Shown: positions 2,124-39,809 of the stretch, piece by piece
Position numbering within the stretch: the stretch's first letter is position 1
How the letters are laid out: each line of letters opens with the position of its first letter
Origin: a virus
Lineage: Duplodnaviria; Caudoviricetes
IMG/VR virus record: IMGVR_UViG_3300014204_013734
Coordinates: 160,001 to 224,000 of that record
Direction: 5' to 3' (one strand)
DNA: 64,000 nt
Program-made: the position numbers and the translations under genes
Notes under the pieces: model-generated
Seen by the model: only the letters and a program-made list of their open reading frames with translations
What the model was told of the DNA's origin: nothing
Databases searched by the model: none

Positions 2124-2822
2124 ATGCCACTCGGACTCGGACAGGCTTCTGGCGGTTGGACGGAAAGTTCTTCGGCACTCAGGATTTTGTATGTTGGTGT
2201 TCGTAACACCCTGAGTCTGCTGACGACTGACGCGTTCAGCCAAACAAACCCCCCGGCAGTTGCGACGAACGTGTCTGCCAAGGTCGACATCACGCTTCAC
2301 GGCGTTCTGTCGGGTTCGGTCGCGTTCACGCGTCCTGACACGGGGTCGGACTACATTGGCGGCCCCGGCTCGGCGGCTGTCCAGGCGGCCATTCAGGCCA
2401 ACGTAGCGCAAGCTATCGGTTATCGTGTTCTCGGCGTGTTCGAGAATTCGGCGGCCGGTAATGCCTACGAAAACACCCCTGGCGTCGCCAGTGGGCGTGG
2501 CCCCCATGTCACGGCAATGGGTTCGTTCGGCAACAAGCTGTACGAAACCGCCCTCATTGGGGATGCTGTTGGTGGCGACCCGGCTGCGGGCGCTGCGATC
2601 ACCTACGTGATGGGCATCGGGCTCATTGCGTCCCGTAACGGTTACCTCACTCCGAATCAGCAACTGAATGCAGCCGGTGCGGCCATCATCTCCTGCGACG
2701 ATGTCACCATCTCCGCAGAAGCGTACTGCCGCAACACGGACAACATCTCCACGTTGATCGGTGTCGTGAAAATGGTCCCCGATGCAACGCAAACGGAGCT
2801 GGTCTATGACCAGCGGATCTAA
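2124..2822 (+). CDS. Probable head decoration/cement protein
   Basis: Strong AAGGAGG RBS; Ala/Gly/Thr-rich; lies between the scaffold and major capsid genes. Confidence 0.55.
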   Translation: MPLGLGQASGGWTESSSALRILYVGVRNTLSLLTTDAFSQTNPPAVATNVSAKVDITLHGVLSGSVAFTRPDTGSDYIGGPGSAAVQAAIQANVAQAIGYRVLGVFENSAAGNAYENTPGVASGRGPHVTAMGSFGNKLYETALIGDAVGGDPAAGAAITYVMGIGLIASRNGYLTPNQQLNAAGAAIISCDDVTISAEAYCRNTDNISTLIGVVKMVPDATQTELVYDQRI

Positions 2823-2832
2823 GGAGGGAGCC

Positions 2833-3717
2833 ATGACACAAACCAATCAAGTTGACAATGCCGTTCGGCAGCGCATCATCGGCGACCTTATCAAGACCCC
2901 TGCGGGTCGTGCAAAGCTTGCCGCTTCCATGACGCAACCTCTCCGTACCCGTCGTGACTATGCCGCGGTCGGTCGTAAGACCTTCCTCGTCGAACAGCTC
3001 CCCGACGGTGCTCTCCCGATCTACGACAAAGACCCGGACATCACGGCTTTTGTCGTGGGTGAAGAAGGTCAGAACATTCTGGCCGTCACGAAACCTCGGC
3101 GCGTGATTTTCCCGTTGTTCGAAATTGCTTCGAACCCGGAAATCCCGCTCACCCAAATCAAGGAACGTCGGTTCGACCTCATCGAACGGTCCCAGAACTT
3201 GGCTCGCGCCCAGATTCAGGCCGCTGAAGATGAGAGGACCTTTGCGGTTCTTGACAGCATCGCAACCTTCGGTTTTGACAGCCTTGCTGGACAGTTGAAC
3301 CCGGACATCCCGGTTGTGGCCCCAATCAGCTCTGCCGTCCTCGCCGACGCATTCAGCTTGGTTGAACGTCAGGACCTCCGTGTTGCTCGCGTTTACATGA
3401 ACGCCCGTGACTACGCTGACCTGCGTAAGTTCGGCCGTGACATCCTGGACATCGAATCCCAGGCGACTTTGCTGAAGACCGGTCTCATGGCGACCCTCTG
3501 GGGTGCCCAGGTCGTGACCAGCCGTCTCGTGCCCGTCGGCACGGTGTACGTTTGTTGCGAGCCGGAACACTTCGGTCGCATTCCAGTCCGTACGGAATTG
3601 ACGGTCCTGTCTGCTGACGACCCGAAAGCCCGTACAATTGGTTTCTCATGCTTCGAGAATTTAGGCATAGGCGCTTTCAACCCGCGTGGTCTGGCCCGTC
3701 TGACCATCACCCGCTAA
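2833..3717 (+). CDS. Major capsid protein (HK97 fold)
   Basis: AAGGAGGGAG RBS. Capsid-like segments GRAKLAASMTQPLRTRRDY, FEIASNPEI, IQAAEDER, VYMNARDYADLRK, LWGAQVVTSRLVPVGTVY. Followed by a strong terminator. Confidence 0.85.
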   Translation: MTQTNQVDNAVRQRIIGDLIKTPAGRAKLAASMTQPLRTRRDYAAVGRKTFLVEQLPDGALPIYDKDPDITAFVVGEEGQNILAVTKPRRVIFPLFEIASNPEIPLTQIKERRFDLIERSQNLARAQIQAAEDERTFAVLDSIATFGFDSLAGQLNPDIPVVAPISSAVLADAFSLVERQDLRVARVYMNARDYADLRKFGRDILDIESQATLLKTGLMATLWGAQVVTSRLVPVGTVYVCCEPEHFGRIPVRTELTVLSADDPKARTIGFSCFENLGIGAFNPRGLARLTITR

Positions 3718-3904: not shown

Positions 3905-6622
3905 GTGTTGACAAAACAGGAATTGATGGGTTTCATTAGACAAGGGATGTTGGACAAAGAAATAGGATTAGCTTGTGGCGTTACGGACGTCACGGTAGGT
4001 AATTGGCGGGACTTTTATGGTTTGAAGACGTTGTCTGTTGATGATCGGCGCGTTTTGCAGGGTTTTCCTTCTTTTGAAGCTGTCACCAAGGATCAGATGC
4101 TTGCACACTTGGTTTCGGGCAAATCCTTGAAGCAGATTGCAGACCTTCACGGGGTGTCTGTTTTTCCCGTGAAGCAGAAGCTGAAGAAATTCGGGTTGGG
4201 TGTCAGGCAGAAATGGCATTATCAAGGGTGTGATGTACTTTCGGATTCTTTGCGTCGTTTGCTGGTTGGTGTTTTGTTGGGGGATGGTACTGTAGGTTAT
4301 GTTGAAGGAGGGGAAACTTCAAGATTCAAGGTAGGTCATAGTCACAAACAGTATACTTACCTCAAGTCTTTGCATGCCAAAATGGGGAAATGGGCACGAC
4401 CGATCAAAGGGTCTGTGTCTTTCAAGTATGGGAAGAAACGATTTAGTTATTGGTTCACGACCATTAATCACCAGGAATTCAGGAAGCTTCGCAAAGAATT
4501 TTACAGGGACGATTTATATGGGACCGTTCCGAACGACTGGTTGAAAGCACCCCCGTTGGAAGTATTTCGTACCTTGCACGATGAATCTTTAGCTTACTGG
4601 TATTTTGATGATGGGGCTTTGGGAACTTCGGACGAAAGCGTTTCTTTGGCGGTGTTCTTTCCGTTGCTTGACATGGATGCCGTTGTAGAAGCCTTGCGTG
4701 TCGGAACGGGTTTGCATTGGAGAAAAAAAGAATGTTCAGGTCATTTTTATAAGGTGTTTTTGGAAGCGGCAGACAAAGAAGCTTTCTTTTCTCGCATCGT
4801 ACAATATGCAACCCAGGATATGGCCTACAAATTCCCGGAAAAATGGTGGAAAGACATAGAAGGATTTTGTATTATTCCTGACGGAATTAGCAATCTTTCG
4901 GAAGAAATATTGTACCACTATCCTGTCACGGAATGGAAGAAGTTGGAAGCGGATGATCAGAAACGTTGGGTGAATGAAGTATTCACCATTTACAGGGCGA
5001 CGGGATTCCCTTTCTCTAAGGTGCTATCAAAAGAAGAAACCCTTGCTACCGTTTTAAGGCTTGCACGGCATAAGGAATTTGTGGATGACGGACATCCTTT
5101 TATTCGTTCCATCGTGGGTCTTTCTTTGTGTAATGGATATATGCCACACAGATTCCAAGTGGTAGTTGGGGGCAAGAGTGCATGGGACACTTTCCACGAT
5201 GATGTTGCTTTCAAGAAAGTGCTTTGGACGCAGTTCAGGATGGCAGGAAGCCGGTGGGTTGGGCCTAAGAATATAAGAGGGGCTTTGTCCGTGTACGGAG
5301 GAAATCGGACACCTTCTAATTTTAGGCCCTCCGCAGTCAAGGCATTGGTGGACCGTTTCTGTTTACCTAGCGGGGTGGTGTGGGATCCTTGTGCGGGTTT
5401 TGGGGGTCGTCTGTTGGGAGCTGTCTGTTCGGACATGAACGTAACTTATATCGGTACGGAACCTTCCCCTCAAACGGTGACTGGTCTTGAAAGGTTGTGG
5501 AAATCAGTTTCTTCTTCAATGGGGTGGCAAAAGGATAGGGTTCGTTTGATTCAAGGGGTAGCAGAAAAAGATTGTCCTGACCCTGATTCTGTGGACTTCG
5601 TTTTCACGTCCCCTCCTTACTTTGACAATGAACGTTATGTAGGAGGACGACAATCTTATTTGTACGACACCTACGTCTCTTGGGTTGAAAGCTTTTTGGG
5701 ACCTTTGGTAGGCAATGCCTATTCTTGTTTGCGGTCTGGGGGTTTTCTGGCAATCAATATTCAAGACATAAAGATGAACGGAAAAACGCTTCCTTTGGTA
5801 GAAGATTTGGATGGGGAAGTTAGGAAAAAGGGCTTCAAGAGGTTCATTCGTTGTTGGTACCCTCTCAGTTTTTTTGGGGGGCAACGCCCTGATGAACCGA
5901 TCCTTATTTATTGGAAACCCTTAGAAAGTATGGATTATGAAGAACCTTCATGGGATTTCGGGGTGAAAAACACCACGTCTGGAAGACATACGGTGTCCAT
6001 TGAAAACGCTTTTTTGCGAAAACGATCCGCCTGTAGCAGGTGCGGAATTCCTTTGGAAGGTCCTACGCGTCAGGTTCGGCATTGCCCTTCTTGTAAGAAA
6101 GAACTTAACGCGGAAAGGGCTCAAACCAAACGAAATTCCTTCAGGGAAGTTCACCCTATCAAGGGATGTCGCACTTTTACCTGCAAACAGTGTGGTTCTT
6201 CTTGGGAAACCTTTGAACTTGGGAATTTTTCTATTTGTCCTTCATGCCGGGAAAAGGAAGCTTTAGCTAAAAGGTCCAAAATCTGTGTCTACCGAAATTG
6301 CGGAAAATCTTTTGTAGACAATAGTTTAAAGAATTCCATGTCTTATTGTTGTTCAGAATGCCAGCGTCGGGAGAAATTGTTTCGATCAGGGAAGGTAACG
6401 GACGAATCCCATTTTCGGGTCAAGGGTAGTCCCAGGGTTCGTACTTGTATGGTTTGCCAAGGGGTTTTCATCCTTGAAAGCGGGGAGGGGAACAATAATC
6501 GGTGTCCAGTTTGTCGTGAAAGGGCTCGGGACAAGAAATGCCGGAAGTGTGGTGTTGGTTTCCGTGATGGTAGCCTGAAGAATACGGTAAAGTTCTGTCC
6601 TGATTGTCGGAAGGGTCCCTGA
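3905..6622 (+). CDS. HTH + LAGLIDADG endonuclease + amino-DNA methyltransferase + Cys-rich Zn-finger fusion
   Basis: LLVGVLLGDG and LAYWYFDDG (two-motif LAGLIDADG); WDPCAGFGGRLLGA (SAM binding) and FTSPPYF (catalytic); more than 8 CxxC pairs at the C-terminus. Confidence 0.8.
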   Translation: MLTKQELMGFIRQGMLDKEIGLACGVTDVTVGNWRDFYGLKTLSVDDRRVLQGFPSFEAVTKDQMLAHLVSGKSLKQIADLHGVSVFPVKQKLKKFGLGVRQKWHYQGCDVLSDSLRRLLVGVLLGDGTVGYVEGGETSRFKVGHSHKQYTYLKSLHAKMGKWARPIKGSVSFKYGKKRFSYWFTTINHQEFRKLRKEFYRDDLYGTVPNDWLKAPPLEVFRTLHDESLAYWYFDDGALGTSDESVSLAVFFPLLDMDAVVEALRVGTGLHWRKKECSGHFYKVFLEAADKEAFFSRIVQYATQDMAYKFPEKWWKDIEGFCIIPDGISNLSEEILYHYPVTEWKKLEADDQKRWVNEVFTIYRATGFPFSKVLSKEETLATVLRLARHKEFVDDGHPFIRSIVGLSLCNGYMPHRFQVVVGGKSAWDTFHDDVAFKKVLWTQFRMAGSRWVGPKNIRGALSVYGGNRTPSNFRPSAVKALVDRFCLPSGVVWDPCAGFGGRLLGAVCSDMNVTYIGTEPSPQTVTGLERLWKSVSSSMGWQKDRVRLIQGVAEKDCPDPDSVDFVFTSPPYFDNERYVGGRQSYLYDTYVSWVESFLGPLVGNAYSCLRSGGFLAINIQDIKMNGKTLPLVEDLDGEVRKKGFKRFIRCWYPLSFFGGQRPDEPILIYWKPLESMDYEEPSWDFGVKNTTSGRHTVSIENAFLRKRSACSRCGIPLEGPTRQVRHCPSCKKELNAERAQTKRNSFREVHPIKGCRTFTCKQCGSSWETFELGNFSICPSCREKEALAKRSKICVYRNCGKSFVDNSLKNSMSYCCSECQRREKLFRSGKVTDESHFRVKGSPRVRTCMVCQGVFILESGEGNNNRCPVCRERARDKKCRKCGVGFRDGSLKNTVKFCPDCRKGP

Positions 6623-9053: not shown

Positions 9054-9270
9054 ACTTGACGAAACAGCCGTTGATATACACCCTTACGCAAACGCGTTTC
9101 GTGTTGTTGAAGCGGAACCCGGTTCTTCCGAATGTTTCTTAGATTTCCTTTTTTTGTCCCCGGAAGAAGACCGAGCTTCTGTGGTGTCTAGAATCAGGGT
9201 CCGTAATGGATTCCTTCCAACCATTAAAACACGTCTCACATTTGCCTTGGATGGTTTTCTTTTTCCGTAA
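9046..9270 (+). CDS. Small DUF3467-like protein
   Basis: YANAFRV...ECFLDF...VVSRIRV pattern; paralog at 17085. Confidence 0.5.
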   Translation: MVELDETAVDIHPYANAFRVVEAEPGSSECFLDFLFLSPEEDRASVVSRIRVRNGFLPTIKTRLTFALDGFLFP

Positions 9271-9357
9271 CAAATAAAAATTCTGCGGTATGGTGAAACT
9301 TGTAATTGTATCCGGCATTCCTGCCGGGTCCTGAAAACTTTTTTGGAGGATGACCAC

Positions 9358-10116
9358 ATGCCGGAATTCGCTTTTGTGCCAGGAACCTTCAGACAATTCA
9401 AGACCTTGAATCGTATCCATCTGGGTGCTATTTCCAAGGATCTTCCTGAAAACACCTTGGTGGAGTTTGACGGGACGACTCTGAAGATCGGGACGGAAAG
9501 TTATTCGTTGCCGACCTTTATTGGGGCACTTCGTAACAAGTGGGCGGTGCCGGTTAACGACAACGTGAGCCACTATGTTCCGCTTTCCTCTGGTGTTACA
9601 ATGCACAGTGCTACCAACCAGGAGAGGACCGTGGAAAGCGTGACAACTACCGTCACGGAAGATGAACTCCAGGTTGGGAGCGTGGCAGCTACGAACGCAA
9701 AGCGGACGGCTCCTGCCAACAAGTTGGTAGTGGGGAAAATCGTTGGGGAAGACGATTTGCCGGAAGTGGATTACAAGTTGCCGCCCGCCAAACCGCAATC
9801 CAGCAATTCGGATGAAATTGCTGTGGTTGAAAACGCATTGAATAACGGCAAAAAGGTCAGCGGACTCAAGGCGGTCTACCAAACGGTTGTTGAAGATCAG
9901 GATGCACAACCGGTTGCTCGGGTGATGTCTCCTGCCGTGCAAGGCATGGTTGATGCCCGCAGTGAGAGTGCCGTGGTCAAAGACCTGGATCCGATTTACG
10001 GCAAGGTATCCAAAGTACAGCATTTGGTCGATCCGCCTGTGAAAGCTGTGGCGGATCCTGACACTGCTTCCAAGAAGGGACCATCCAAGACAAAGGGTCC
10101 CCGCAAGTCCAAGTAA
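9358..10116 (+). CDS. Hypothetical protein
   Basis: GGAGG RBS; long ORF in operon orientation. Confidence 0.75.
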   Translation: MPEFAFVPGTFRQFKTLNRIHLGAISKDLPENTLVEFDGTTLKIGTESYSLPTFIGALRNKWAVPVNDNVSHYVPLSSGVTMHSATNQERTVESVTTTVTEDELQVGSVAATNAKRTAPANKLVVGKIVGEDDLPEVDYKLPPAKPQSSNSDEIAVVENALNNGKKVSGLKAVYQTVVEDQDAQPVARVMSPAVQGMVDARSESAVVKDLDPIYGKVSKVQHLVDPPVKAVADPDTASKKGPSKTKGPRKSK

Positions 10117-10177: not shown

Positions 10178-10567
10178 TTGAAACATAACGCCAGCAGTCA
10201 AGCCGCTTGGGCACTCCTTATGGAAGGGGTTACCAAAGCGAGGATTGAAGCTCACCGGATCAGGCACTTGGTTAACCGTGCTACCAGCCTTGTGGGATCC
10301 TCTTCCGAAAAAGAACACCTATACCAAGTAGCAGGCGACATTATCGTCGGGTTGCCTGATCGGTTGGAAAAGTTGGAAGTCACTCTTGACCGAACAGGGT
10401 TGGCCTTGTCGGAAATGGGTCAGGATTTCCTGAAATCGCGTCTCCCCTTTTCGGAAAAGACTTTGGTAGAAGAAGCCGTTGAACCGGCTTTTGGGAAGGG
10501 GCGTCCGATGGAATCCATGTCCGAACGCATAGCGTCGCGGTGGTTGGAGGGGGTTGATGTCGATTAA
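10178..10567 (+). CDS. Hypothetical protein (helical; C-terminal ERIASRW motif)
   Basis: AGGAGG RBS before TTG 10178; overlaps the next gene. Confidence 0.65.
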   Translation: MKHNASSQAAWALLMEGVTKARIEAHRIRHLVNRATSLVGSSSEKEHLYQVAGDIIVGLPDRLEKLEVTLDRTGLALSEMGQDFLKSRLPFSEKTLVEEAVEPAFGKGRPMESMSERIASRWLEGVDVD

Positions 10568-12071
10568 GTTGACATACAGCCAGCCGGCCAGCGAACTTCC
10601 AGGTTACAAGACGCTGGTTACGCCTGACCCTGTCCCCGGACAGGGGGAACCTGATTCTGCGCTTCCAACCCCTCCGTGGACCCGGTCAAAGCCGACCGGA
10701 CCGACCTATTACAACAAGCATGATGTGACTCCCCACAGGACTTTGAACGAACCTGGGGAAGATAGACCCGTGCCTAACCCGGAACCTAGCACCTTGGTAG
10801 TGCGCCGCCCCGAAATGCGGGCGGCGGGTGATCGGGAAGGGGCTATGAATGGTCCTGCTTATCCTCCTAGCCAACTGCGGCAGAAGGACCAAAGGGGCCA
10901 GGCCCGGATGTACCACAAAAAGTGGTACCGGTCCCATCGGGGCAAGATCAAGAACCGTGCGCTGCGGTGGTGGAAGAAGAACCACAACAAGTTCAACTAC
11001 AAGAAAGACCAACAGCGGCGCCGGAAGTGGCCCGCCAAGTTTGAACGGAAACCGGGTGGCGGCGTTAAGGAAAACAAAAACCGCACTCAAGAATGGCGGG
11101 ACAAGAATTCTGCTTTGGAAGAATGGATTGGTGATCCTGAAATCCAGTTGGTTGGAAATGGGAATCCCGTTTTTTTCGTTCAGTCTTCTACGGACCGTGA
11201 CGGTTGGGTTGTTGGGGTCAATCCCGACACAGGTGAAGTTGTAGTCTTGTTTGACCAAACGGACACTTTGGAAAACATTCCCATTGAAACCTTCTTTGAA
11301 GATGCAGATTTCCTGTCCGAAGAAGACGCCAACGTTGTGATGGCTGATCTTGATGCCGTATTCGGGTGGTCAGAAGACATGACGGAACGGGTCGCCTGCC
11401 GTTGGGCTGAAATGCTGTATGAAAAACGGCCCCCGGAGATGGACCCGGAAACCGTGTGGAATCGGGGTAGTGACAGGTCCAAATGGTGGACGCAAGGTCC
11501 GCCCGCCGAGGATATGGATGGCGGATGGGTCCCGGACAATCCAGGATCAGCTAAGGTCATCCCGGACAATCGGGATTTTGTCAACAACAAAGCGGCCGCC
11601 TTGATTGCCGACATACGGAAGGGATGTGATCCCAGCATCCTGGAAAAGGCTAAGGGTGTCCAGTTCCGTAAGATTCGGTCGGACAAACAGAATCTTGTCT
11701 GGTTGTTTAATGTAGAGGGTTCCGAAGGGAAGAGTTATCGGGTCAGGGCCAAGGTCATTCCCAAAGGGAACGTTAGGGATGTGGCGAAAGCCGACATCAT
11801 GGTGTCTTGTTCTTGTCCGTTCTGGCGTTGGCAGGGTCCGGAACACTGGGCATTGGAAAAGGGATACCTCTACGGTAAACCAAAAGGTTCAGCCGAAAAT
11901 CCTGATGTCAGGGACCCTGATGGGAAGCATTTGATGTGCAAACACGTGGCCGCCATTTTGGATCGTATTTCCGGGTGGTCGGTCCGCAATAAAGTAGCGG
12001 TTGTGTCAGTTTCCTGGCAGGATTTTATGACGGATGAAGTCGTCCGTCGGTACTGTGAAGCCTGGAGGTGA
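10557..12071 (+). CDS. Multi-domain protein with basic region and C-terminal SWIM-type Zn finger
   Basis: CSCPFWRWQG...MCKHVAA (CxC-xn-CxH); K/R/W-rich segment. Confidence 0.7.
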   Translation: MSIKLTYSQPASELPGYKTLVTPDPVPGQGEPDSALPTPPWTRSKPTGPTYYNKHDVTPHRTLNEPGEDRPVPNPEPSTLVVRRPEMRAAGDREGAMNGPAYPPSQLRQKDQRGQARMYHKKWYRSHRGKIKNRALRWWKKNHNKFNYKKDQQRRRKWPAKFERKPGGGVKENKNRTQEWRDKNSALEEWIGDPEIQLVGNGNPVFFVQSSTDRDGWVVGVNPDTGEVVVLFDQTDTLENIPIETFFEDADFLSEEDANVVMADLDAVFGWSEDMTERVACRWAEMLYEKRPPEMDPETVWNRGSDRSKWWTQGPPAEDMDGGWVPDNPGSAKVIPDNRDFVNNKAAALIADIRKGCDPSILEKAKGVQFRKIRSDKQNLVWLFNVEGSEGKSYRVRAKVIPKGNVRDVAKADIMVSCSCPFWRWQGPEHWALEKGYLYGKPKGSAENPDVRDPDGKHLMCKHVAAILDRISGWSVRNKVAVVSVSWQDFMTDEVVRRYCEAWR

Positions 12072-20201: not shown

Positions 20202-22991
20202 ATGCCTGTTTGTGAAGGTTGTGGAAAAGAATACAGTAAGGGCGGTTTGAATTCACACCGTAAAACATGTATTTCTTATCAAGAATGGGCAAAGCAACTG
20301 CCCTTTTCTTGTGCTTGTGGGTTTCATTTTGCCACAGAAAGATCATTACGATCTCACAAAAAAGGTTGTGGCAAGGCGGAACGATTGCGGCTGGGAGGGC
20401 GAAAGTGTGTTTGCGGTCAAACTTACTGGTCGGTTTCGGAACACCGTAAAACTTGTCCTGGTGCACCAGAAGAGTCTTCGTCTTTGGTGGTATTGAAAGA
20501 CCCACCTCCCGGATTTTGTGCGTGTGGAAGGGATTTTTCCGCCAGCAATCAAAGATCAACTTTGCACAAACATCAGCAGGGGTGTTCGGCGTGGCACGTC
20601 TGGCAAAAGACATTGCCAGTCAAATGCGAAGGTTGCGGTCTTGGTTTTAAAGACCAGTTTAGCAAACGGTCGCATGCACAATTATGTTCTGATTGGCAGC
20701 GTTGGAAACAGATAAAAGACGAAAAGGAAAAGAAATTCCCTTGCCCTTCTTGTGGAATGTTGTTTCGTGGTCTTAAATTAGGTCTTCACGTTAATTCTTG
20801 TTCCGGGCCATGGACAAAACGTGATTGGGCTCGGCAACATAGACGAAGTAAGAGCAAGAGATTAGGTTTGATGAATCAAAAATTTCGGGAAGGGGCGGAT
20901 TTTGTCACCTGCTTGTTGTGTGGGGACCGTTTTCGTTCATTGTCCTTCCACTTGACTAGTCAGCATGGCATTGATACTGTGGAATACAGGTGCAGATTTG
21001 GAGGGGCTTCGGTGTCTGGAAACACCCAAGCTAAAAGAAAAGCAACAATGATGGACCGATACGGGTATCCTACACTTCTTCAACATCCCGTGTTATCTAA
21101 ACAGATACAAGAAAAGAGAAAAGCTACTTGTCGTAAACGGTATGGAGGAGACAGCCCTTTTTCTTCTAACTTGACAAGACCCCCAAAGAAAAACCGTTTG
21201 GAGTCAACGGTGGAAATGATTTCCCCTAAAAATGTGATCTATGTTGGAGATTTTCGTTACTGGATACAGTGCAAAGATGTGACGGGGAAGTGGATCAACA
21301 GAAATCCGGATTTCGTAGTGTATGACAAGGATAAGATGGATATTCTTTACAGCGGGGTTGTTCCGAACAAGATTCGCACTTGGAAAATTGTAGAAGTTCT
21401 AGGTGACTATTTTCACGGTCCAAAACTAAAAGGTTTGGATAGGGCAGCTTACACAGCCATGAGGATTGCAGAATATGCTTCCGTTAAGGTTCATTGCCTG
21501 ATCTTATGGGAATCTGAAATAAAGGATGACTTGGAAGCCGTTCGTGCCCGGTTATCCGCCTTTGCTGAAGAAAACCCCGTTTGTTTGAATTCGGATTCCG
21601 TCATTGGGGTTCCCCCTTCAAAATTTGACTTTGACAGGTATTACAAACGGAAGTTGTGGGCGGATGGGTTGGTAGAAGGGAAGGATTTTGTTTCCTGTCC
21701 GATTTGTGTGGCTTCCGATTCAGAGAAGGAATATCGGGCGCTACGTCTGGCCGACCACTTGAAACTGGTTCACGGGTTGTCCAGGGCGGAATTTGAGAAG
21801 CAGTTTCCAGGGTCCCCCATCGTTGCCCCTGTCGTCTATGAGAAGCGATCCAAGACCGTTAAGGCACTTTACGGCGTTGACAATGTGTTCCAGGCTGAAT
21901 CCATCAAAGAAAAGTCCAGGGAAACTGTCAGGGCCGAATATGGGGTGGACCATTCATCTCAAATACCTTCTGTCGTCCGACAGCGGGCAATGACCAATCT
22001 GTCCCGTTACGGACATGAAAACCCGTTCGGTGGGGAAGCCGTACAGGAAAAAATCCGCAAGACCATGACGGAACGGCACGGTGCCCCTAACCCCCAACAG
22101 GTTCCTGAAATCAGGGCACGCACTTTGGAAACCTGCAAGGATCTGTATGGGGATGAATTCTTTTTCCGCACGGAAGAATTCAGGAAGAAATTCCGGGAAG
22201 TCAGCCAGGAACGATTCGGTGCGGATCATCCGATGCAATCCGATGAAGGAAAAGCCTTGTGTGTAAAGGGTTGTCAAGAACATTTGGGGGTTGACAACCC
22301 TTTCCTTGTGCCGGACATTTTCAAGAAGTCTTACGAAACCAATCTAGCTAATCATGGGAGCAAGCATTCACAGCAGTGTAAGGAAGTACTTAAAAAAGCC
22401 CGTCAGACTTGGATGGAAAGGATTGGTGTTGACAATCCGTCAAAGTCGGAAGAAGTTAGGGCTAGGATGCGGGCAACATGGATGGAAAAGTATGGGGTTG
22501 ATCATCCGTTCAAAACCGAAATGGTTAGGCAAAAACTCAGGGAAGCTTTTATCAAAGCTTATGGAGTCCCTTTCTTTCCCAGCAGTGCTTTTTTCAAACA
22601 AAACCGCCCCAACAAGTTGGAAAAGAAATTTGATGCCTTGTCCCCCGTCAATGTGGTTTATGCGGGAGATGGGTCCTATTGGATCAAGCATACCGGGGCG
22701 ACCAATTCTCGTAATCCAGATTTTGTAATCTTGGATCAGGATCAGTTGGAATCCTGGAAGTCTGGGACGGCCTTGAACAAGCTCCGCACTTGGGGTACTG
22801 TAGAAATCCTAGGTGTTTACTGGCACGGACCTAAATTTACAGGGAAGAACCGTGATGACCATCAACTGGAAATCATTGAGTATTACGCCAAGTGCGGGAT
22901 TTCCTGTTTGGTTGTATGGGAAGATGATTTGAATTCCGATCCTGCTACCGTTGTCACCCGTCTTCAGCGGTTCCTCGGGTTTCAGCACTAA
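20202..22991 (+). CDS. Zn-finger/repeat protein with two Vsr-like PD-(D/E)XK nuclease domains (putative homing endonuclease)
   Basis: Many CxC/CxxC; MucR-like C2H2 (VTCLLCG..HLTSQHG); about 10 K-T-x-x-E-R/K-Y-G-V-D-N/H-P repeats; RNPDFV..VE(V/I)LG.Y(F/W)HGPK..L(I/V)(L/V)WE twice. Confidence 0.7.
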   Translation: MPVCEGCGKEYSKGGLNSHRKTCISYQEWAKQLPFSCACGFHFATERSLRSHKKGCGKAERLRLGGRKCVCGQTYWSVSEHRKTCPGAPEESSSLVVLKDPPPGFCACGRDFSASNQRSTLHKHQQGCSAWHVWQKTLPVKCEGCGLGFKDQFSKRSHAQLCSDWQRWKQIKDEKEKKFPCPSCGMLFRGLKLGLHVNSCSGPWTKRDWARQHRRSKSKRLGLMNQKFREGADFVTCLLCGDRFRSLSFHLTSQHGIDTVEYRCRFGGASVSGNTQAKRKATMMDRYGYPTLLQHPVLSKQIQEKRKATCRKRYGGDSPFSSNLTRPPKKNRLESTVEMISPKNVIYVGDFRYWIQCKDVTGKWINRNPDFVVYDKDKMDILYSGVVPNKIRTWKIVEVLGDYFHGPKLKGLDRAAYTAMRIAEYASVKVHCLILWESEIKDDLEAVRARLSAFAEENPVCLNSDSVIGVPPSKFDFDRYYKRKLWADGLVEGKDFVSCPICVASDSEKEYRALRLADHLKLVHGLSRAEFEKQFPGSPIVAPVVYEKRSKTVKALYGVDNVFQAESIKEKSRETVRAEYGVDHSSQIPSVVRQRAMTNLSRYGHENPFGGEAVQEKIRKTMTERHGAPNPQQVPEIRARTLETCKDLYGDEFFFRTEEFRKKFREVSQERFGADHPMQSDEGKALCVKGCQEHLGVDNPFLVPDIFKKSYETNLANHGSKHSQQCKEVLKKARQTWMERIGVDNPSKSEEVRARMRATWMEKYGVDHPFKTEMVRQKLREAFIKAYGVPFFPSSAFFKQNRPNKLEKKFDALSPVNVVYAGDGSYWIKHTGATNSRNPDFVILDQDQLESWKSGTALNKLRTWGTVEILGVYWHGPKFTGKNRDDHQLEIIEYYAKCGISCLVVWEDDLNSDPATVVTRLQRFLGFQH

Positions 22992-32617: not shown

Positions 32618-33197
32618 AGCCCGTATCATATGTTTGGTGCCGTCCATCCGTATTCCGGATCTTGATTTGACTTTGGCTAAGGACCAGGAAGCTTACGTGG
32701 ACGAAAAGGCTGCCAAAGGTTCCCTTGATTTGGATGTAGCCCGCCGGGCCGGCGGAGTCCAATTGCATTGGGTAGAACGTAGCCGAATCGTTAAGTCCCC
32801 CGACCCTCCGGTGCCGCCTGTACGTGTGGATCCGCCAAAACGAGGATTCCAGTCGTTTCCAGCAGAACGGTTGGAATTGGATTTGGATGACTTGGCCAGT
32901 CGTGTTGCTGAACGGATGGTTTCCAAGACTAGGGATTCAGAAACGAACAGCAAGATAGACGCCCTCCTTGAACTGGTTGGAAATCTTCGTCAAGAAATTG
33001 CAGGGGCTTCTGTTGCATCGGGTCAGTCCCGTGGTAGGGTAACAGTTGAGGATGACACCCCTGTGTTCATCCCTGGCAAGTTGGTGAACGAAGATTTGGG
33101 GACCGTGGAAGTGAAGACAGACGATTCAGATTCCGGTGATGGTTTGGATAAGGCGGCGGAAGTCTTGAAAGCATTACGGAAACGCAAGAAGAAATGA
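32610..33197 (+). CDS. Hypothetical protein
   Basis: GAGGAGG RBS before GTG 32610; basic C-terminus; coupled to the actin-like gene. Confidence 0.65.
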   Translation: MVEARIICLVPSIRIPDLDLTLAKDQEAYVDEKAAKGSLDLDVARRAGGVQLHWVERSRIVKSPDPPVPPVRVDPPKRGFQSFPAERLELDLDDLASRVAERMVSKTRDSETNSKIDALLELVGNLRQEIAGASVASGQSRGRVTVEDDTPVFIPGKLVNEDLGTVEVKTDDSDSGDGLDKAAEVLKALRKRKKK

Positions 33198-33208
33198 GGA
33201 GAACCGCC

Positions 33209-34237
33209 ATGGCGGACAAGACAGAAAAATCAAATAATTCCAATAGGTTGCCGGGCAGTGGTTTAGATTGTGGCACTATGAATATTGTTTCAGCCAGACG
33301 AGGCCCTTCTGGTATCATTACGAAACGGATGCGGGACGTGTTCCTAGATCTTCCCTTAAGTGCGAAGAAGATGTTGAAGTTATCCAACGCCAGTTTCGTG
33401 GAACGGCCAGACGACGTCCTCATCCTGGGCGATGCGGCCCTGGAAATGGCCAACGTGTTTGGGAAGGATCCTCGCCGTCCATTGGCCCAGGGTATTATTT
33501 CTCCCAGTGAATCGGAAAGTTTGGAAGTTTTGGGGTTGCTCGTCAAGAGTGTTCTTGGTGACCCTATTGTTCCGGGGGAACATTGTTACTTTTCTGTTCC
33601 TGCTATGCCGGTTGACAGGACAGATAAGGATGTCATTTACCATCGTGGGGTGTTTGAACGCATTGTCAAGGAATGTGGGTTCACGCCACATTCCGGCAAC
33701 GAGGCGATGGCCATCATCTATTCGCAGACGGCGGAAGAAGGCTTTTCCGGGATTGCCCTTTCCTTCGGAAGCGGTATGACAAATGTCGCACTTTCGATAA
33801 ATACCGTAGAAGGGTTGACTTTTTCGGTCGCCCGGGGCGGGGATTGGATTGATGCCGGCGCGGCGCATGCCATTGGGCAGACGCCTGCCCGCATCTGTGC
33901 CCTGAAGGAACGCGGGTTTGACCTCATAAGCCCTGTCGGCAGGGAACAGGAAGCCTTGGCTTTCTATTACAAGGAAGCCATCAACTATGCTTTTGACCAG
34001 ATCGAAGCCCAGTTCAAGGCGGTCAAGGACAAGTTCTCCCTTGCGAAGCCTATCCCGATGATCGTGTCGGGCGGGACTTCCCTTGCCGGTGGCTTCATGG
34101 ATTTCTTCACGGGAGTTTTTGAAGCCCGTCGGAAGAAGTTCCCCATTTCCATTTCGGTCATCCGTCAGGCATCTGACCCCTTGAATGCCGTGGCTCATGG
34201 TTTGCTGGTGCAGGCGATGCAAGAGCACGAACAATAG
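33209..34237 (+). CDS. Actin-fold ATPase (MreB/ParM/FtsA-like)
   Basis: GLDCGTMNIV (phosphate 1), NEAMAII, LSFGSGMTNV (phosphate 2), GGDWID, IVSGGTSL (adenosine), DPLNAVAHG. Confidence 0.85.
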   Translation: MADKTEKSNNSNRLPGSGLDCGTMNIVSARRGPSGIITKRMRDVFLDLPLSAKKMLKLSNASFVERPDDVLILGDAALEMANVFGKDPRRPLAQGIISPSESESLEVLGLLVKSVLGDPIVPGEHCYFSVPAMPVDRTDKDVIYHRGVFERIVKECGFTPHSGNEAMAIIYSQTAEEGFSGIALSFGSGMTNVALSINTVEGLTFSVARGGDWIDAGAAHAIGQTPARICALKERGFDLISPVGREQEALAFYYKEAINYAFDQIEAQFKAVKDKFSLAKPIPMIVSGGTSLAGGFMDFFTGVFEARRKKFPISISVIRQASDPLNAVAHGLLVQAMQEHEQ

Positions 34238-34307
34238 TTTCAGTTCTTGGCGGAATCCGTGGTGGATTTTGTTAAGTTTGATAGACAGACAAAGGAAGGC
34301 AAGGATC

Positions 34308-34712
34308 ATGAAAACGTTTGACGAAATCTACAAAGACACGGATTCATTGGACGACAAGGCCCTCTTGGATTCCTTGCGGGAAGAATCCAGGTGCAAGCTG
34401 GCGTCGGAAAAGTTTCTCCACCAATTCGGTGATCTGTTTGCTGCTGTTGAACACAACAATGTTCGGGTGTCTGATGTCGTCACGTCTGTGACCATTTGGA
34501 CGGACTTGCGGAAAAACTATCCAGAATACGTGGATCCTGAAACGGAACTGTCCGTTCTGAAGGATGGCAGGATGGGAGGTTTGTGGGGCGCCAATGTGTG
34601 GGTTGACAAGACGGTGCCTCCCAACCATATCCGCGTCTATGGAGAAGATGACCCGGCGTTCGCATCCGAATGGCCCAAGTTCGCATCTGCAGCGGAAAAG
34701 TTGTGGACCTGA
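34308..34712 (+). CDS. Stand-alone paralog of one major capsid protein domain
   Basis: Aligns without gaps over about 65 aa to the capsid protein at 2833-3717 (see findings). Confidence 0.7.
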   Translation: MKTFDEIYKDTDSLDDKALLDSLREESRCKLASEKFLHQFGDLFAAVEHNNVRVSDVVTSVTIWTDLRKNYPEYVDPETELSVLKDGRMGGLWGANVWVDKTVPPNHIRVYGEDDPAFASEWPKFASAAEKLWT

Positions 34713-34761: not shown

Positions 34762-35655
34762 ATGACCGAAAAGAAGACATTTCAACCATTTCCTGTTCAG
34801 CGGGTCATCATCAAGGCTTTTCGTGGCATTCAATTGGATTCCGTTGCCAAGTTCAGCATCCTGTCGGATTGGAAAAAAGGGAAGAAGGAAACCGTTACTG
34901 AGACGTCCCTCCTTCATTACCTTCACGATGAAGGCATGTGCAACACTTGGAAAATTGAAGTTGGAAGACCCTTCCAACAACTCGTTCTTTGTGCTGGACG
35001 TCGGGCTGGCAAGAGCTTTGTGGGGCACCGTCTCGTGGCGGATGCTTTCAACGAATTACGGTCTACGGATGATTTCCGAGTCGGTTTGGGTCTTGGGGAA
35101 GAAGAAGACCTGAACATGGCGGTTGTCGGCGCATGCAAGGAAATGACAGATTATTCCATGAATGCTATTTGGGATAATTTGAAGGGGGATGATTCGTTAG
35201 CACGGGTTGTCGGACGGATTTCAGATCCTAAACGCCGTTGTCGCATTGTAGCCATGTCGGCTTCCGGCAAGGCGTTGCACGGCAGTAAGAATTATTTCAC
35301 CTTTCTGGATGGAACCATACACGGCCCGAACCCCGATAAGGTTTACAGGTTGGCTCTGATGTCCGGTAAGGGCTTTAAGGGGTCTGCGGAAAGTAAAGTT
35401 GTGTCTGTATTTTCTCCGCCGATCATGCAGAAAGGTGCTGATTTCGCTTACAGGTTTTGGTTGTCGGCCCACCAGGATGCCGGGAATACCCTTTGTTTTC
35501 GCATCCCTTCTTGGGTGATGAACCCGACGATTTCCCGGGATGTGTGGAAGCAGGAAGCAGATCGTATGGACGAAGCCGTATTCCGGGCGGAATACGGGGC
35601 TGAATTTGTTAGTGCTGATGGAAAGCCGTGGAAAAATACAAAGGACCTTTACTAA
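34762..35655 (+). CDS. Truncated terminase large subunit paralog (ATPase domain only, degenerate)
   Basis: PFPVQRVIIK (Q motif), LVLCAGRRAGKS (Walker A), FTFLDG (Walker B without Glu), RIPSWVMNP, FRAEYGAEF, then stop. Confidence 0.75.
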   Translation: MTEKKTFQPFPVQRVIIKAFRGIQLDSVAKFSILSDWKKGKKETVTETSLLHYLHDEGMCNTWKIEVGRPFQQLVLCAGRRAGKSFVGHRLVADAFNELRSTDDFRVGLGLGEEEDLNMAVVGACKEMTDYSMNAIWDNLKGDDSLARVVGRISDPKRRCRIVAMSASGKALHGSKNYFTFLDGTIHGPNPDKVYRLALMSGKGFKGSAESKVVSVFSPPIMQKGADFAYRFWLSAHQDAGNTLCFRIPSWVMNPTISRDVWKQEADRMDEAVFRAEYGAEFVSADGKPWKNTKDLY

Positions 35656-35674: not shown

Positions 35675-37009
35675 ATGCTTCATCAATGGGCTGGATGGGA
35701 AGTAGATCTACTGTCGGCGACACGCCCTTGGCTTCCTGCATCCGATCTTATTAGTTTGTTCAAGGCGTGCGGATCCGTCAGATCCAAAGATTCTTTGAAC
35801 AACAAGGCAACTGCTCTTGGTATTGACATACGGGGGCACAATGCCGAAAAGGCACTGTCAGCGGTCATCAAGTCAAAAATCCCACAAAACCTGAAACAAT
35901 TGGCGGTTACGTTCCTTGGAGGGGTTCCTATCGATACGTCGGAAATCGGGGATCCTTCAAAGGTAGCTGACCGAGTGGAAATTGACAAACTTCGGGGTAG
36001 GGTCCGGTCCCTTGAAAAGGACTTGGAAGAAGGCACCTATTTCGGCAAAATCGTGAAGGATCTGTTTTCCAAACCGGTTTCGGTTCCGGATTGGGTTCTG
36101 GCAGCCCCCAAGAAGAAATCAGGGAAGGTAGCGACCCCCCAACTGCTCATCAGTGATTGGCATTATGGGGAAGTCGTGGACCCGAATGCCATTTGGGGAG
36201 TCAACGAATACAACCCAGAAATAGCTGTCCGGCGCCTGCACCGTGTAGCACAAGCTGCTACCTCCATGTTCAAGGAATACTTGTCGGGATGGCGGTATGA
36301 CGGCATCATAGTCCCCTTGGCAGGGGACATGATTTCCGGCAAGATTCATGCAGAGTTGGAACGTACAAACGCCGAACAGTTGACTGATTCCGTTTTGTCC
36401 TGGTCAGCCGAATTGGCGCGTATGCTTACTGTCCTGGCGGATGCCTTCGGCAAAGTTTACGTTCCAGCGGTAGTTGGAAATCATGGCAGGGAAGATCTTA
36501 AACCTTCCATGAAGCAGGCCGTGGCCCGGAACTACGATTATCTGTTGTACCGACTTGTGAAACGGGAAGTGCATAATGATCCCCGTATTACGGTGGATGT
36601 GTCCCTTTCTACTTCACGTAGGTACACGGTTTACGGGCAGGGATACCACTTGATGCACGGTGACGATTTCAAGGGTGGTAGCGGTATTGCCGGTTCCTGG
36701 TCCCCTTTGAAACTCGGAGAACACCGGACGACGCAACAGTTCATGGATTTGGGACATGATTTTGAGTCTGGGTGTTTGGTTCTTGGGCACTTCCATCGTC
36801 GGATGACCGATATTGGTCTGATTGTCAACGGGTCAGGGATCGGTTACAATGAATTTGCATTCCGGAAACATTACAAATTCGAAAGACCCCAGCAGGCGGC
36901 GTGGATCACAACCCCGGAAAATGGCCAGACTTTGGAATTCCCTGTATTCTGTGATTCCCACGAGGAATACGAAGCCCAGATAGTTGCCGCCAGACTCTTG
37001 AACAAGTGA
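35675..37009 (+). CDS. Calcineurin-like metallophosphoesterase with N-terminal HTH/coiled region
   Basis: SDWHYG, AGDMISG, VGNHG, MHGD, LGHFH. Confidence 0.88.
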   Translation: MLHQWAGWEVDLLSATRPWLPASDLISLFKACGSVRSKDSLNNKATALGIDIRGHNAEKALSAVIKSKIPQNLKQLAVTFLGGVPIDTSEIGDPSKVADRVEIDKLRGRVRSLEKDLEEGTYFGKIVKDLFSKPVSVPDWVLAAPKKKSGKVATPQLLISDWHYGEVVDPNAIWGVNEYNPEIAVRRLHRVAQAATSMFKEYLSGWRYDGIIVPLAGDMISGKIHAELERTNAEQLTDSVLSWSAELARMLTVLADAFGKVYVPAVVGNHGREDLKPSMKQAVARNYDYLLYRLVKREVHNDPRITVDVSLSTSRRYTVYGQGYHLMHGDDFKGGSGIAGSWSPLKLGEHRTTQQFMDLGHDFESGCLVLGHFHRRMTDIGLIVNGSGIGYNEFAFRKHYKFERPQQAAWITTPENGQTLEFPVFCDSHEEYEAQIVAARLLNK

Positions 37010-37038: not shown

Positions 37039-37255
37039 CGTTCCCCCACTTATGTGGGGTGATCTTGGAACCCCTTTGGTGAGTATTCCCCACATCAGTG
37101 GGGATGAACCGCGGCGTGGATTACGTTCCCTACACACGTGGGGATGGCCCGTGCTCGGCGTTTGTTCGTTCCTAATTCCCCACGTTAGTGGGGGTGACCC
37201 GTGGGACATCACCTTAGATTTTGATGTTGTTCCCCACATTAGTGGGCGTTGACTG
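37039..37255 (+). CRISPR. Degenerate type I-E-like CRISPR mini-array: 5 repeats, 4 short spacers (about 15, 11, 21, 25 nt), no cas genes in window
   Basis: Repeats at about 37039-37067, 37083-37111 (GTATTCCCCACATCAGTGGGGATGAACCG), 37123-37151, 37173-37201, 37227-37255. All keep a TCCC(C/T)AC-N4-GTGGG(G) hairpin; 8-nt 3' handles ATGAACCG, ATGGCCCG, GTGACCCG. Confidence 0.8.
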
Positions 37256-37271
37256 ACCAGAGGGGTTCCAA

Positions 37272-38471
37272 TTGTACTTTCAGTTAACCGAACAATTGAA
37301 ACGACGGTTCATTTTAGAACTCCGTCGTTTCTGGTCTACACATCCCCACTACTCCGACATTGTTGACAAAATTCAAGGGAAGTTTTCCTTCAAGGAACGT
37401 CCTTCCTACGGCATTATTGTCAAGACTTCCGGAGGTAACCGGGTTGACCTTTCCGCCGACAACTATATGGCTATGACGATCAGTTACGTCCACTTGGCGC
37501 GTGCAAGAAACAATCCTGGGGTTGCCATAGAATGGGTTCGTGAAGATTCTGTTGCCATTCAAAATAATGGAGGTATTTTTCCGTCTCTGCCTGGTGTTTA
37601 CTGGATTGAATTGACGGAGGATACTGAATTTTACGTTGACCCTCTCCTGAACATTGTCGGGGAAATCCCAACCCCTATTGACCTTACGACGTTTCAGTTG
37701 CAGCACGCCCCTGTTGCTGGGACTGTCCGTTTGTATGAGATGCCTGCCCGTTATATGTTGGTAGAGGGACAGAACTACACACTTTCCCTTGGACCTGATG
37801 GGAAACCGAATGGTGAAATCATTCTGACGACTCCGTTGACCAGAGACCGCTTTCTGGTAGCGGATTATCGTTTTCCAGCCCCCTCCCGTGGACCTTTCGT
37901 TTTGAACCCCGGTTATGCTGATAACAAAGCAATCCCGGGTGTGATTTTGGCATTTGGTAGGAGGAATCAGAAGGGTGATAAACTTGTTGTCATCGTTGAC
38001 GAAATTCGTCGTCCAGTTGCGTTGGAGTATGGTGGAAAATGGGACGTCACCTTAGATTTTGATGTCATTGCCAGAGATGTTCATGCACAGCAGGAAATTG
38101 CAGATGCAACCGTCGTCTGGATTTGGGCTGTCCTTCGGTCTTGGATGTCCCAGGAAGGTTTGGAAATTACCGACCTGTCCATGGGGGGTGAATCGGAGGA
38201 AACCTACGATGAAGCTGGTGACGACTATTTCTACAACTCTTCGTTTTCCTTGACCGTTCAGACTGATTGGCGCCTCCAGGTTCCTTTGAGTGCCTTTATC
38301 CGGCAAGTTACTCCTGAAACCAGCATTTATGCCCGGGGATTGGCTTCTATCCCGGATGCCCAGTTGGCTTTAACCCAACAGGGGATTAGGGCGGCTACCG
38401 ACTTGGGTTTGGAACTGGTTTCCGACCCCTTCTTTTCCGGGCGTATTGCCACATACGAACAAGTCCGGTGA
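37272..38471 (+). CDS. Putative tail terminator/neck structural protein
   Basis: TTG start after GAGGGG. C-terminal LDFDVIARD..QQEIAD..SFSLTVQTDW fits a tail-terminator fold; lies upstream of the sheath. Confidence 0.5.
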   Translation: MYFQLTEQLKRRFILELRRFWSTHPHYSDIVDKIQGKFSFKERPSYGIIVKTSGGNRVDLSADNYMAMTISYVHLARARNNPGVAIEWVREDSVAIQNNGGIFPSLPGVYWIELTEDTEFYVDPLLNIVGEIPTPIDLTTFQLQHAPVAGTVRLYEMPARYMLVEGQNYTLSLGPDGKPNGEIILTTPLTRDRFLVADYRFPAPSRGPFVLNPGYADNKAIPGVILAFGRRNQKGDKLVVIVDEIRRPVALEYGGKWDVTLDFDVIARDVHAQQEIADATVVWIWAVLRSWMSQEGLEITDLSMGGESEETYDEAGDDYFYNSSFSLTVQTDWRLQVPLSAFIRQVTPETSIYARGLASIPDAQLALTQQGIRAATDLGLELVSDPFFSGRIATYEQVR

Positions 38472-38993: not shown

Positions 38994-39809
38994 GTGCGGA
39001 CCTATTTGATTTACAAGGCAACTTCTCCTTCCGGGAAGATTTACGTAGGGCTTACCAGCCAAAAAATGAAGGTGAGAAAACACCAACATTATTCGTCAGC
39101 TAAGCGGTTTCAAAGTTCTGGGGCTTTCCAGAAGGCCCTTCTCAAGTACAGGACTGCTATGACGTGGGACATCTTGGAATCTGGACTTCCTGACTTTGAA
39201 GCTGCCGCTGCCAGGGAACGGTATTACATAGCCTTGTTTGGAGCAAATATCTCAGGTAAAGGCTACAACCACACGGAAGGAGGGGGTCAAGGAAGACCCT
39301 TGAATTCCAAGAATTCCAAATCTAATATTGATCCGGTCTTGCGTTCTGATGGGATTGTTTTTCCTTCTGCACGGGCTGCTGCTTTGGCTATGGGAGCAAA
39401 GTGTGATTGGGCTGTTGGAAAGGCCATCAAGAATAAAGGCACCTGTGGTGGATTTTCTTTTCGGCGGATATCCGTTGAAGAATATGAATCTTTGAAAGAA
39501 ACATGTACCCCTAAGAACGTTCCCATTGTTCATTGGACTTATGCTAGGACTTTTTCTGATGCCGTCAGACGGAAGATATCGGAAACAAAAAAAGGGAAAC
39601 CTTTAAAGCACACCAGCAAACCTGTTAGGCGTTCGGATGGGGTTTTGTTTCCGTCCATAAAAGAAGCAGCGATTTCGGTTGGTACGACATCAGACGCTTT
39701 ACGCTATGCTGCACAAAGAAACCAACTTTGTCATGGGTTTTTATTTGAGATTTTTCCGAAAGGAATTTCGGTGGTCGCCCTATTGAAACCCCTTGGTGGA
39801 CAGGATTGA
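38994..39809 (+). CDS. GIY-YIG homing endonuclease with NUMOD-type DNA-binding repeats
   Basis: LIYKATSPSGKIYVGLT, ERYYIALF, GYNHTEGG; two RSDG..FPS..AA repeats; RRKISETKKG. Confidence 0.88.
   Translation: MRTYLIYKATSPSGKIYVGLTSQKMKVRKHQHYSSAKRFQSSGAFQKALLKYRTAMTWDILESGLPDFEAAAARERYYIALFGANISGKGYNHTEGGGQGRPLNSKNSKSNIDPVLRSDGIVFPSARAAALAMGAKCDWAVGKAIKNKGTCGGFSFRRISVEEYESLKETCTPKNVPIVHWTYARTFSDAVRRKISETKKGKPLKHTSKPVRRSDGVLFPSIKEAAISVGTTSDALRYAAQRNQLCHGFLFEIFPKGISVVALLKPLGGQD

Follow-up and report, generated by a model that had tools for sequence, protein, structure and literature searches.

A stand-alone copy of the capsid axial domain in a very large uncultured phage, and its possible role as a mimic of free capsid protein

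The 64,000-nucleotide stretch of phage DNA analysed here (the window) carries, at positions 34308 to 34712 on the plus strand, a real gene for a compact, autonomous protein that copies the axial domain (A-domain) of a phage-G-type HK97 capsid protein. As judged from sequence comparison, this protein (P0001, 134 aa) is one of an unnamed family of mini-proteins in very large phages; it is neither an isolated curiosity nor the outcome of a recent duplication of the resident capsid gene. Among the functions that we weighed for it, a capsid-protein mimic aimed at host sensing ranks first, tentatively and with a probability of roughly 0.38. The source genome is one of the very large uncultured phages: the virus record comprises 381,280 bases, and the same protein is also on record on a 444-kb contig.

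The gene and its protein

The open reading frame as listed extends from 34185 to 34712, and an internal ATG at 34308 gives the 134 aa of P0001, with the stop codon included in the coordinates of the gene. Read from the sequence, a Shine-Dalgarno-like AAGGAAGG is located 8 nt before this ATG (34292 to 34299, plus strand). The initial annotation had described the reading frame as intact, which it is, and the ribosome-binding site is present.

Three parts can be distinguished in the protein, all on the plus strand. The core homologous to the axial domain of the major capsid protein (MCP) comprises residues 34-115 (34407 to 34652), in which the order of elements is helix, strand, helix, strand, helix and three strands; it was delimited by hhalign, by matching secondary structure and by the match to HK97 gp5. 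It is preceded by a family-specific N-terminal helical extension (residues 1-33, 34308 to 34406), conserved in the short family at profile positions 9-41 and consisting in the model of helix 4-13 and the first part of helix 16-48, at pLDDT 90-95. No MCP counterpart of this extension was detected, and it falls outside the hhalign match. The core is followed by C-terminal helices (34653 to 34709), also family-specific, which were defined from the alignment consensus, the paralogs in two related IMG/VR contigs (L010 and L011) and the model, and which contain a conserved acidic-aromatic-Pro motif, EWP in P0001 and DFP in the family consensus.

The neighbours of the gene are all on the same strand, with short intergenic gaps. 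Consensus promoters and terminators around the gene gave matches at chance level when compared with shuffled sequence, an Rfam search of the window between 33 and 39 kb returned no match, and P0001 does not carry the two-helix tag of nearby small proteins.

Homology to the resident capsid protein

The resident full-length HK97-fold MCP, the parent type of the domain, is encoded by a 311-aa open reading frame at 2782 to 3717 on the plus strand, identified by phrog_2522 (E 4.9e-49), by its structure model and by its relatives. Translation probably begins at the Met of residue 18, 17 codons past 2782; in support of a start beyond 2782 to 2832, the identical protein is represented in the database by a cluster of 294 aa, and relatives are ~290 aa long. 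Residues 1-23 of the listed frame were modelled at pLDDT < 50.

The gap-free alignment to a stretch of the capsid protein that had been claimed for the 134-aa frame was recovered by BLASTP, with 26 identities in 74 residues (35%, E 1e-12; residues 40-113 of P0001 on 187-260 of the MCP). Searched in all six frames, the full 381-kb record resembles the MCP in two places only, the MCP gene itself and P0001 (E 3.6e-8), and the phrog_2522 profile matched residues 39-113 of P0001 at profile positions 194-268 of 318 (E 4.8e-7); by these three results, the likeness between P0001 and the MCP is far beyond chance. When the family alignment was compared with the MCP alignment in hhalign (probability 99.7%, E 6.6e-27), residues 34-115 of P0001 corresponded to residues 181-262 of the MCP and nothing beyond. 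This part of the MCP gene (3322 to 3567, plus strand) was also delimited by BLASTP and the family profile.

The family profile itself matched the resident MCP at E 8.9e-27 and the solved phage G capsid protein gp27 (6WKK, residues 154-232) at E 1.8e-22. On the strength of these matches (E 1e-22 to 1e-27), the short family clearly derives from a phage-G-type MCP. Over the same 74 residues, the family consensus shares 49% identity with the MCP and P0001 35%, so that the consensus is the closer of the two, which is the pattern that descent from the MCP lineage followed by divergence would give. The near-invariant residues of the family (Glu48, Val54, Arg68, Gly87 and Ala95) are conserved in the MCPs too.

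Relative to phage-G-type MCPs (phrog_2522, PF25209 Phage_capsid_4, gp27 6WKK), P0001 thus shares a homologous axial-domain core but is without the N-arm, the E-loop, the spine helix and the P-domain strands, ~70% of the fold, and has two added helical ends that are absent from the MCPs. With so much of the HK97 fold missing, a shell could not be built by P0001 through the known contacts.

Structural models

An AlphaFold2 model of P0001, with the 54-member family alignment as input, reached a pLDDT of 95.9 and a pTM of 0.82. It contains helices at residues 4-13, 16-48, 61-70, 81-85, 116-121 and 123-133, and strands at 54-59, 75-77, 88-92, 95-99 and 108-112. Between residues 37 and 112 each element has a single equivalent in the MCP model, at an offset of +147; past the shared elements, the MCP continues into the P-domain strands and P0001 into its two terminal helices. 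The AlphaFold2 model of the MCP (pLDDT 75) scored Z 14-16 against HK97 gp5 and encapsulin shells across ~220 residues and has the complete HK97 fold, whereas P0001 consists of the A-domain elements and two unrelated helical ends.

Residues 30-120 of P0001 aligned to residues 249-335 of HK97 gp5 with Z 6.0-6.3 and an rmsd of ~3 Å over 76-79 residues (VIA-align); a Z of ~6 is middling by the tool's own note, and the weight of the comparison lies in the uniformity of the match list and in the sequence evidence. We take gp5 249-335 to lie within the HK97 A-domain, in agreement with the MCP model, residues 47-311 of which map onto gp5 119-383, so that MCP 181-262 and P0001 fall on one and the same region of gp5. 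A Foldseek search of the PDB with the P0001 model gave weak E-values (≥ 0.2) in a list dominated by capsid proteins. Independently of Foldseek, the model was compared with 48,161 representative PDB chains, and the best 50 were all HK97-fold capsid or encapsulin proteins, matched in their axial-domain part. The TcaP-bound capsid 8G1R was among the PDB matches. Profile and structure comparison (hhalign, AlphaFold) therefore both recover the HK97 A-domain, and the proposal that P0001 is a stand-alone copy of this domain without the rest of the fold is sustained.

A family of short A-domain proteins in metagenomes

A phmmer search of 1.84 billion representative proteins with P0001 gave 105 matches at E ≤ 1e-3, about 90 of which were proteins of 93-210 aa that aligned near end-to-end with P0001, while full-length MCPs were found among the weaker matches only. 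The best short relative shared 44% identity over residues 22-131 of P0001. In an alignment of 54 members, conservation extends through the A-domain core and is also seen in a helical segment at the N-terminal end and in a C-terminal segment that bears the DFP-like motif. These 54 members have no Pfam family of their own, and P0001 has no Pfam match at E ≤ 1; the sole recurrent PHROG was the capsid phrog_2522, in 14 of the 54 members, and the short family has no PHROG of its own. Two members carry two tandem A-domains per chain (P0019, 251 aa; P0035, 290 aa, on an 88.6-kb contig), each copy matching the family profile at E 1e-17 to 1e-22. In a FastTree phylogeny of 80 shared columns, the short proteins and the MCPs were not cleanly separated, and with a tree of this length we make no claim of a single origin for the short family.

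Other searches returned little. A word-based protein search with P0001 found only P0001 itself and, with the family alignment, five members only; tblastn of P0001, P0004 and P0026 against 50,697 deposited phages found full-length MCPs only, or nothing. One candidate locus from a metagenome scan (L038) was a false match and was discarded, as it had no family-profile match, and another metagenome scan and a scan of genome contigs with P0007 gave no match. Phage G and Tunturi_5 possess the MCP and no short member.

Small proteins of cultured jumbo phages (116-146 aa) in BFVD resemble the P0001 model at Foldseek E 1e-4 to 0.08: A0A2H4IBH4 and A0A2H4IAS8 of Erwinia phage Y3, S5VZG9 of PaBG, A0A1Y0SV83 of Noxifer, A0A514CSE5 of Motura and A0A127AW84 of SP-15. 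The family profile found no match in Y3, PaBG or Noxifer, and the small Y3 open reading frames resemble no large Y3 open reading frame. As these look-alikes are recognised by structure only, generality beyond this MCP lineage is unproven; if they are true lone A-domains, they would provide a laboratory system.

The breadth of the family bears on whether P0001 could be no more than a non-functional leftover from an ancient event in which part of the capsid gene was duplicated, which we regard as very improbable. Its reading frame is intact with a ribosome-binding site, the ~90 clusters are likewise intact with conserved N- and C-terminal additions and with the near-invariant residues of the fold kept, the model is very confident, and tandem paralogs are all open. 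A high dN/dS of 0.60 (see below) and the lack of the gene in some relatives would fit such a remnant, but neutral decay was not what the comparison of relatives revealed, as these are intact with a conserved fold core. The initial annotation had also held that the gene is not a recent broken duplicate, and this agrees with its nearest relatives being short proteins (44% over 110 aa) and not the resident MCP (35% over 74 aa).

Genomic context and copy number

Genomic context was available for five family members. In the 485-kb genome LR745208.1 the gene order is a 472-aa gene, a 202-aa gene, a Volactin-type actin, a 399-aa gene and a zinc-ribbon gene, with nothing between the actin and 399-aa genes and no short family member anywhere in the 485 kb. 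Two IMG/VR contigs have the same gene order: L011 carries three tandem members between the Volactin gene and the homologue of the 399-aa gene, and L010 carries at least two tandem members upstream of its homologue of the 399-aa gene. In the genome studied here a single member occupies this slot, followed by three items that the relatives lack, namely an ATPase-only terminase paralog, a phrog_284 exonuclease and a mini-array of hairpin repeats. Since the slot is shared with the relatives and the other three items are absent from them, the A-domain gene is syntenic and the other three are an insertion.

The upstream gene (33194 to 34237) encodes a Volactin-family actin-like protein (PF25216, E 4.5e-70), with 65% identity to its counterpart in LR745208 and 75% to that in L011; the Pfam family is named for an archaeal cytoskeletal actin. 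Within the insertion, the 297-aa terminase paralog (34762 to 35655) comprises the ATPase half only and shares 27% identity over 312 aa with the resident 627-aa TerL, encoded at about G000:C1:140.4-142.3 kb; the paralog is absent from L003, L010 and L011. The phrog_284 exonuclease-type protein of the same insertion (35675 to 37009, E 2.4e-38) has no paralog in the genome.

The mini-array (37040 to 37260) consists of five hairpin repeats (TTCCCCAC-4 nt-GTGGGG) separated by short spacers that are near-copies of flanking genes: the spacer at 37202 to 37228 matches 38040 to 38066 at 25 of 27 positions, and that at 37152 to 37172 is the reverse complement of 36358 to 36378 at 19 of 21. No Rfam match was found for the array, and the 381-kb record yielded no type I-E Cas7 (PF09344); the hairpin also appears singly at genome positions 53402 and 56255. 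Further downstream, a GIY-YIG homing endonuclease gene (38994 to 39809) lies between the zinc-ribbon gene and a 1765-aa gene, with no homologue in the fetched parts of L010, L011 and L003, and more homing-endonuclease-like domains are located inside the large open reading frames at 3905 to 6622 and 20202 to 22991.

We considered whether P0001, the terminase-like gene and the exonuclease form one conserved module and rejected this, as L010 and L011 have A-domain genes without the other two. This corrects the picture of a fixed module of capsid mimic plus terminase mimic: the pairing is particular to this genome, and neither the adjacency of P0001 to the terminase-like gene nor that to the array is conserved in L010, L011 and L003.

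The same comparison bears on a role of P0001 as a weapon against co-infecting phages, in which the A-domain would enter the capsomers of a rival MCP as a dominant-negative poison. The domain that forms capsomers is kept and everything for inter-capsomer contacts is missing, the gene is 2.3 kb away from the mini-array, the spacers of which are similar to flanking genes in the versions carried by sister phages, and diversified tandem copies could fit several rivals. We nevertheless think such a weapon improbable, because the MCPs of the clade are 86-93% identical, so that a poison for sister phages would hit the phage's own capsid too, and because the adjacency to the array and the terminase-like gene is confined to this genome, as described above.

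In two further members the surroundings are quite different. In L058 (9172-11320) the 130-aa member P0232 (9816-10208) is located between an IS607-type tnpA (9172-9819), a serine recombinase with Resolvase and MerR domains, and a tnpB (10205-11320), a Cas12f1-like TNB; its start and stop codons overlap both neighbours (ATGA), and P0232 looks like cargo of a transposon-like unit. In L059 (10528-11928; G010:C37, a 155-kb contig) a 195-aa A-domain protein (phrog_2522 E 1.8e-8) adjoins an HD_4 hydrolase of RelA/SpoT type, and the full MCP of the contig is encoded 79 kb off (L060:9570-10484). With CapRel-type toxins in mind, the proximity of a small-alarmone-type hydrolase to a copy of the capsid domain is suggestive, but it is a single case.

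Rate of evolution

The orthologue pair from L010 and L011 shared 69% identity, with dS 0.32, dN 0.19 and dN/dS 0.60, whilst the adjacent 399-aa gene on the same two contigs shared 91% identity with dN/dS 0.085. Of the more than 2000 clusters related to the MCP, the best 120 shared 86-93% identity with it (~290 aa, on contigs of up to 536 kb). The short family thus changes quickly and its parent MCP is almost frozen, with the reading frames of the short family open and the fold-defining residues kept. The A-domain gene is an accessory, variable and mobile gene rather than a core gene.

These rates are relevant to what we consider a possible though doubtful alternative, a structural accessory of capsid assembly, where the free A-domain would attach to the MCP of the phage itself. 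It might cap monomers or chaperone them ahead of assembly, occupy or label particular capsomers, or sit as a decoration on capsomer centres in a very large shell. In favour of such an accessory, A-domains naturally pair with other A-domains, the gene shares its orientation with nearby structural-type genes and adjoins the 399-aa gene with tail-terminator-like features, and its position is syntenic in three related phages. The gene is dispensable, however, with no copy in LR745208 (485 kb) and the MCP only in phage G and Tunturi_5; its copy number varies, and one copy is in a transposon-like unit. A partner of an MCP that is 86-93% conserved should itself be conserved, yet the orthologues share 69% identity at dN/dS 0.60. 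A core assembly factor does not fit, since the fixed partner of a frozen MCP should neither have a dN/dS of 0.6 nor be lost. Fast evolution, copy-number change and the transposon context instead speak more for a part in conflicts than for one in core assembly, and point to the family being a dispensable, mobile, conflict-type accessory gene.

Relation to known systems

The closest known proteins are the Family 4 "A-domain encapsulins" (PF08967/DUF1884), A-domain-only proteins of ~100 aa from hyperthermophilic archaea and two Bacteroidetes genera (PMC8346489). They are encoded in two-gene operons downstream of GAPDH, DeoC, [NiFe] hydrogenase or OsmC, and their function is unproven (Andreas and Giessen 2021, PMC8346489). 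PF0899 of Pyrococcus furiosus (PDB 2PK8) is classed among them (PMC8346489). Both groups consist of the A-domain alone at ~100-130 aa, both are encoded downstream of a putative partner gene, and 2PK8 matched P0001 at Z 6.2-6.3 with an rmsd of 2.8-3.2 Å over 75-79 residues, tied with the HK97 gp5 A-domains. In sequence, PF08967 had no match among the 54 family members at E ≤ 0.01 and 2PK8 was not found by the family profile at E ≤ 1. The two groups differ further in that Family 4 is cellular, whereas the P0001 family is viral, MCP-derived, fast-evolving and variable in copy number, with terminal helices of its own, and in place of the Family 4 operons the P0001 gene follows a Volactin-type actin gene in a phage genome that spans 381 kb or more. 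On sequence grounds the P0001 family is a parallel case to Family 4 and no member of it, and it would represent a second, independent reduction of the HK97 fold to the axial domain, after the archaeal Family 4.

This parallel raises the idea of a self-assembling mini-scaffold like that of Family 4, in which P0001 would form rings or small shells that hold a partner, possibly the upstream Volactin. That PF0899 (2PK8) ties for the top structural match lends it some appeal, as does the placement of the clade genes downstream of Volactin, resembling that of Family 4 genes downstream of a partner enzyme gene (PMC8346489). We judge it quite improbable, given that neither PF08967 nor 2PK8 matches in sequence, that LR745208 has Volactin without any copy, that the members in L058 and L059 have other neighbours, and that the function of Family 4 is itself unproven (PMC8346489).

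Two other groups of proteins share part of the behaviour of the family. Poxvirus K3L, a cut-down eIF2-alpha mimic that blocks PKR, resembles the P0001 family in being a short one-domain copy of a protein that is sensed or targeted, in evolving fast and in changing its number of tandem copies; the protein imitated by K3L belongs to the host, and the target of K3L is known, whereas P0001 copies a capsid protein of the virus itself and has a putative target. P4 Sid, SaPI CpmB and PLE TcaP are capsid-redirecting proteins of phage satellites, likewise small accessories that act on HK97-type capsid assembly in conflicts between mobile elements, but these are scaffolds without capsid homology, whereas P0001 is a phage-encoded fragment of a capsid protein.

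A possible mimic of free capsid protein

Few phage molecules are as conserved or as widely sensed as the capsid protein, and to our knowledge a counter-measure by a stand-alone copy of the sensed capsid domain has been described by nobody. P0001 keeps the A-domain, which forms the capsomer centre, without the N-arm, E-loop and P-domain that lock subunits together. With this fold kept and the subunit-locking elements missing, we propose that P0001 may, in soluble form, imitate the face by which unassembled MCP forms capsomers, and that it would occupy a partner that normally binds this face. The most plausible partner would be a host capsid sensor, either a STAND protein of the Avs7/8/10 type or one of the CapRel type. 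The mimic would bind the sensor without presenting the rest of the surface for switch-on, and the infection would go unsensed. The MCP may be too constrained to escape by mutation, so a separate, freely evolving copy could be useful to the phage.

The binding mode of known sensors is compatible with this proposal. Avs7, Avs8 and Avs10, unrelated STAND sensors, bind the penton- and hexon-forming A-domain interface of monomeric MCP (PMC13581612). Avs7 also touches the P-domain and the E-loop, and large MCP-induced changes precede its oligomerisation (PMC13581612); with these contacts reaching beyond the A-domain, a free A-domain could occupy the sensor without completing its activation.

Several observations weigh against a mimic of this kind. 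A sensor-bound mimic could equally act as a trigger. The gene is in a co-oriented block with head-tail-type genes and in no obvious early or anti-defence island; the downstream 399-aa gene is tail-terminator-like by language-model features only. A dN/dS of 0.6 is also expected of relaxed constraint.

A wider form of the proposal, which we hold to be possible but unlikely, is that the evolving, duplicable and transposable free A-domains of very large phages inhibit Avs7/8/10-like or CapRel-like receptors, and that the ATPase-only terminase copy of this genome does the same against terminase sensors. If true, this would be the first counter-defence that copies the phage's own sensed structural domain. 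As a fast-evolving, phage-encoded copy of the domain that the STAND sensors bind, P0001 is an obvious candidate for such a counter-measure; it is small and well modelled, which makes it convenient for co-expression. Even if the decoy idea fails, the ~90 clusters would provide a defined set in which the function of lone A-domains may be sought.
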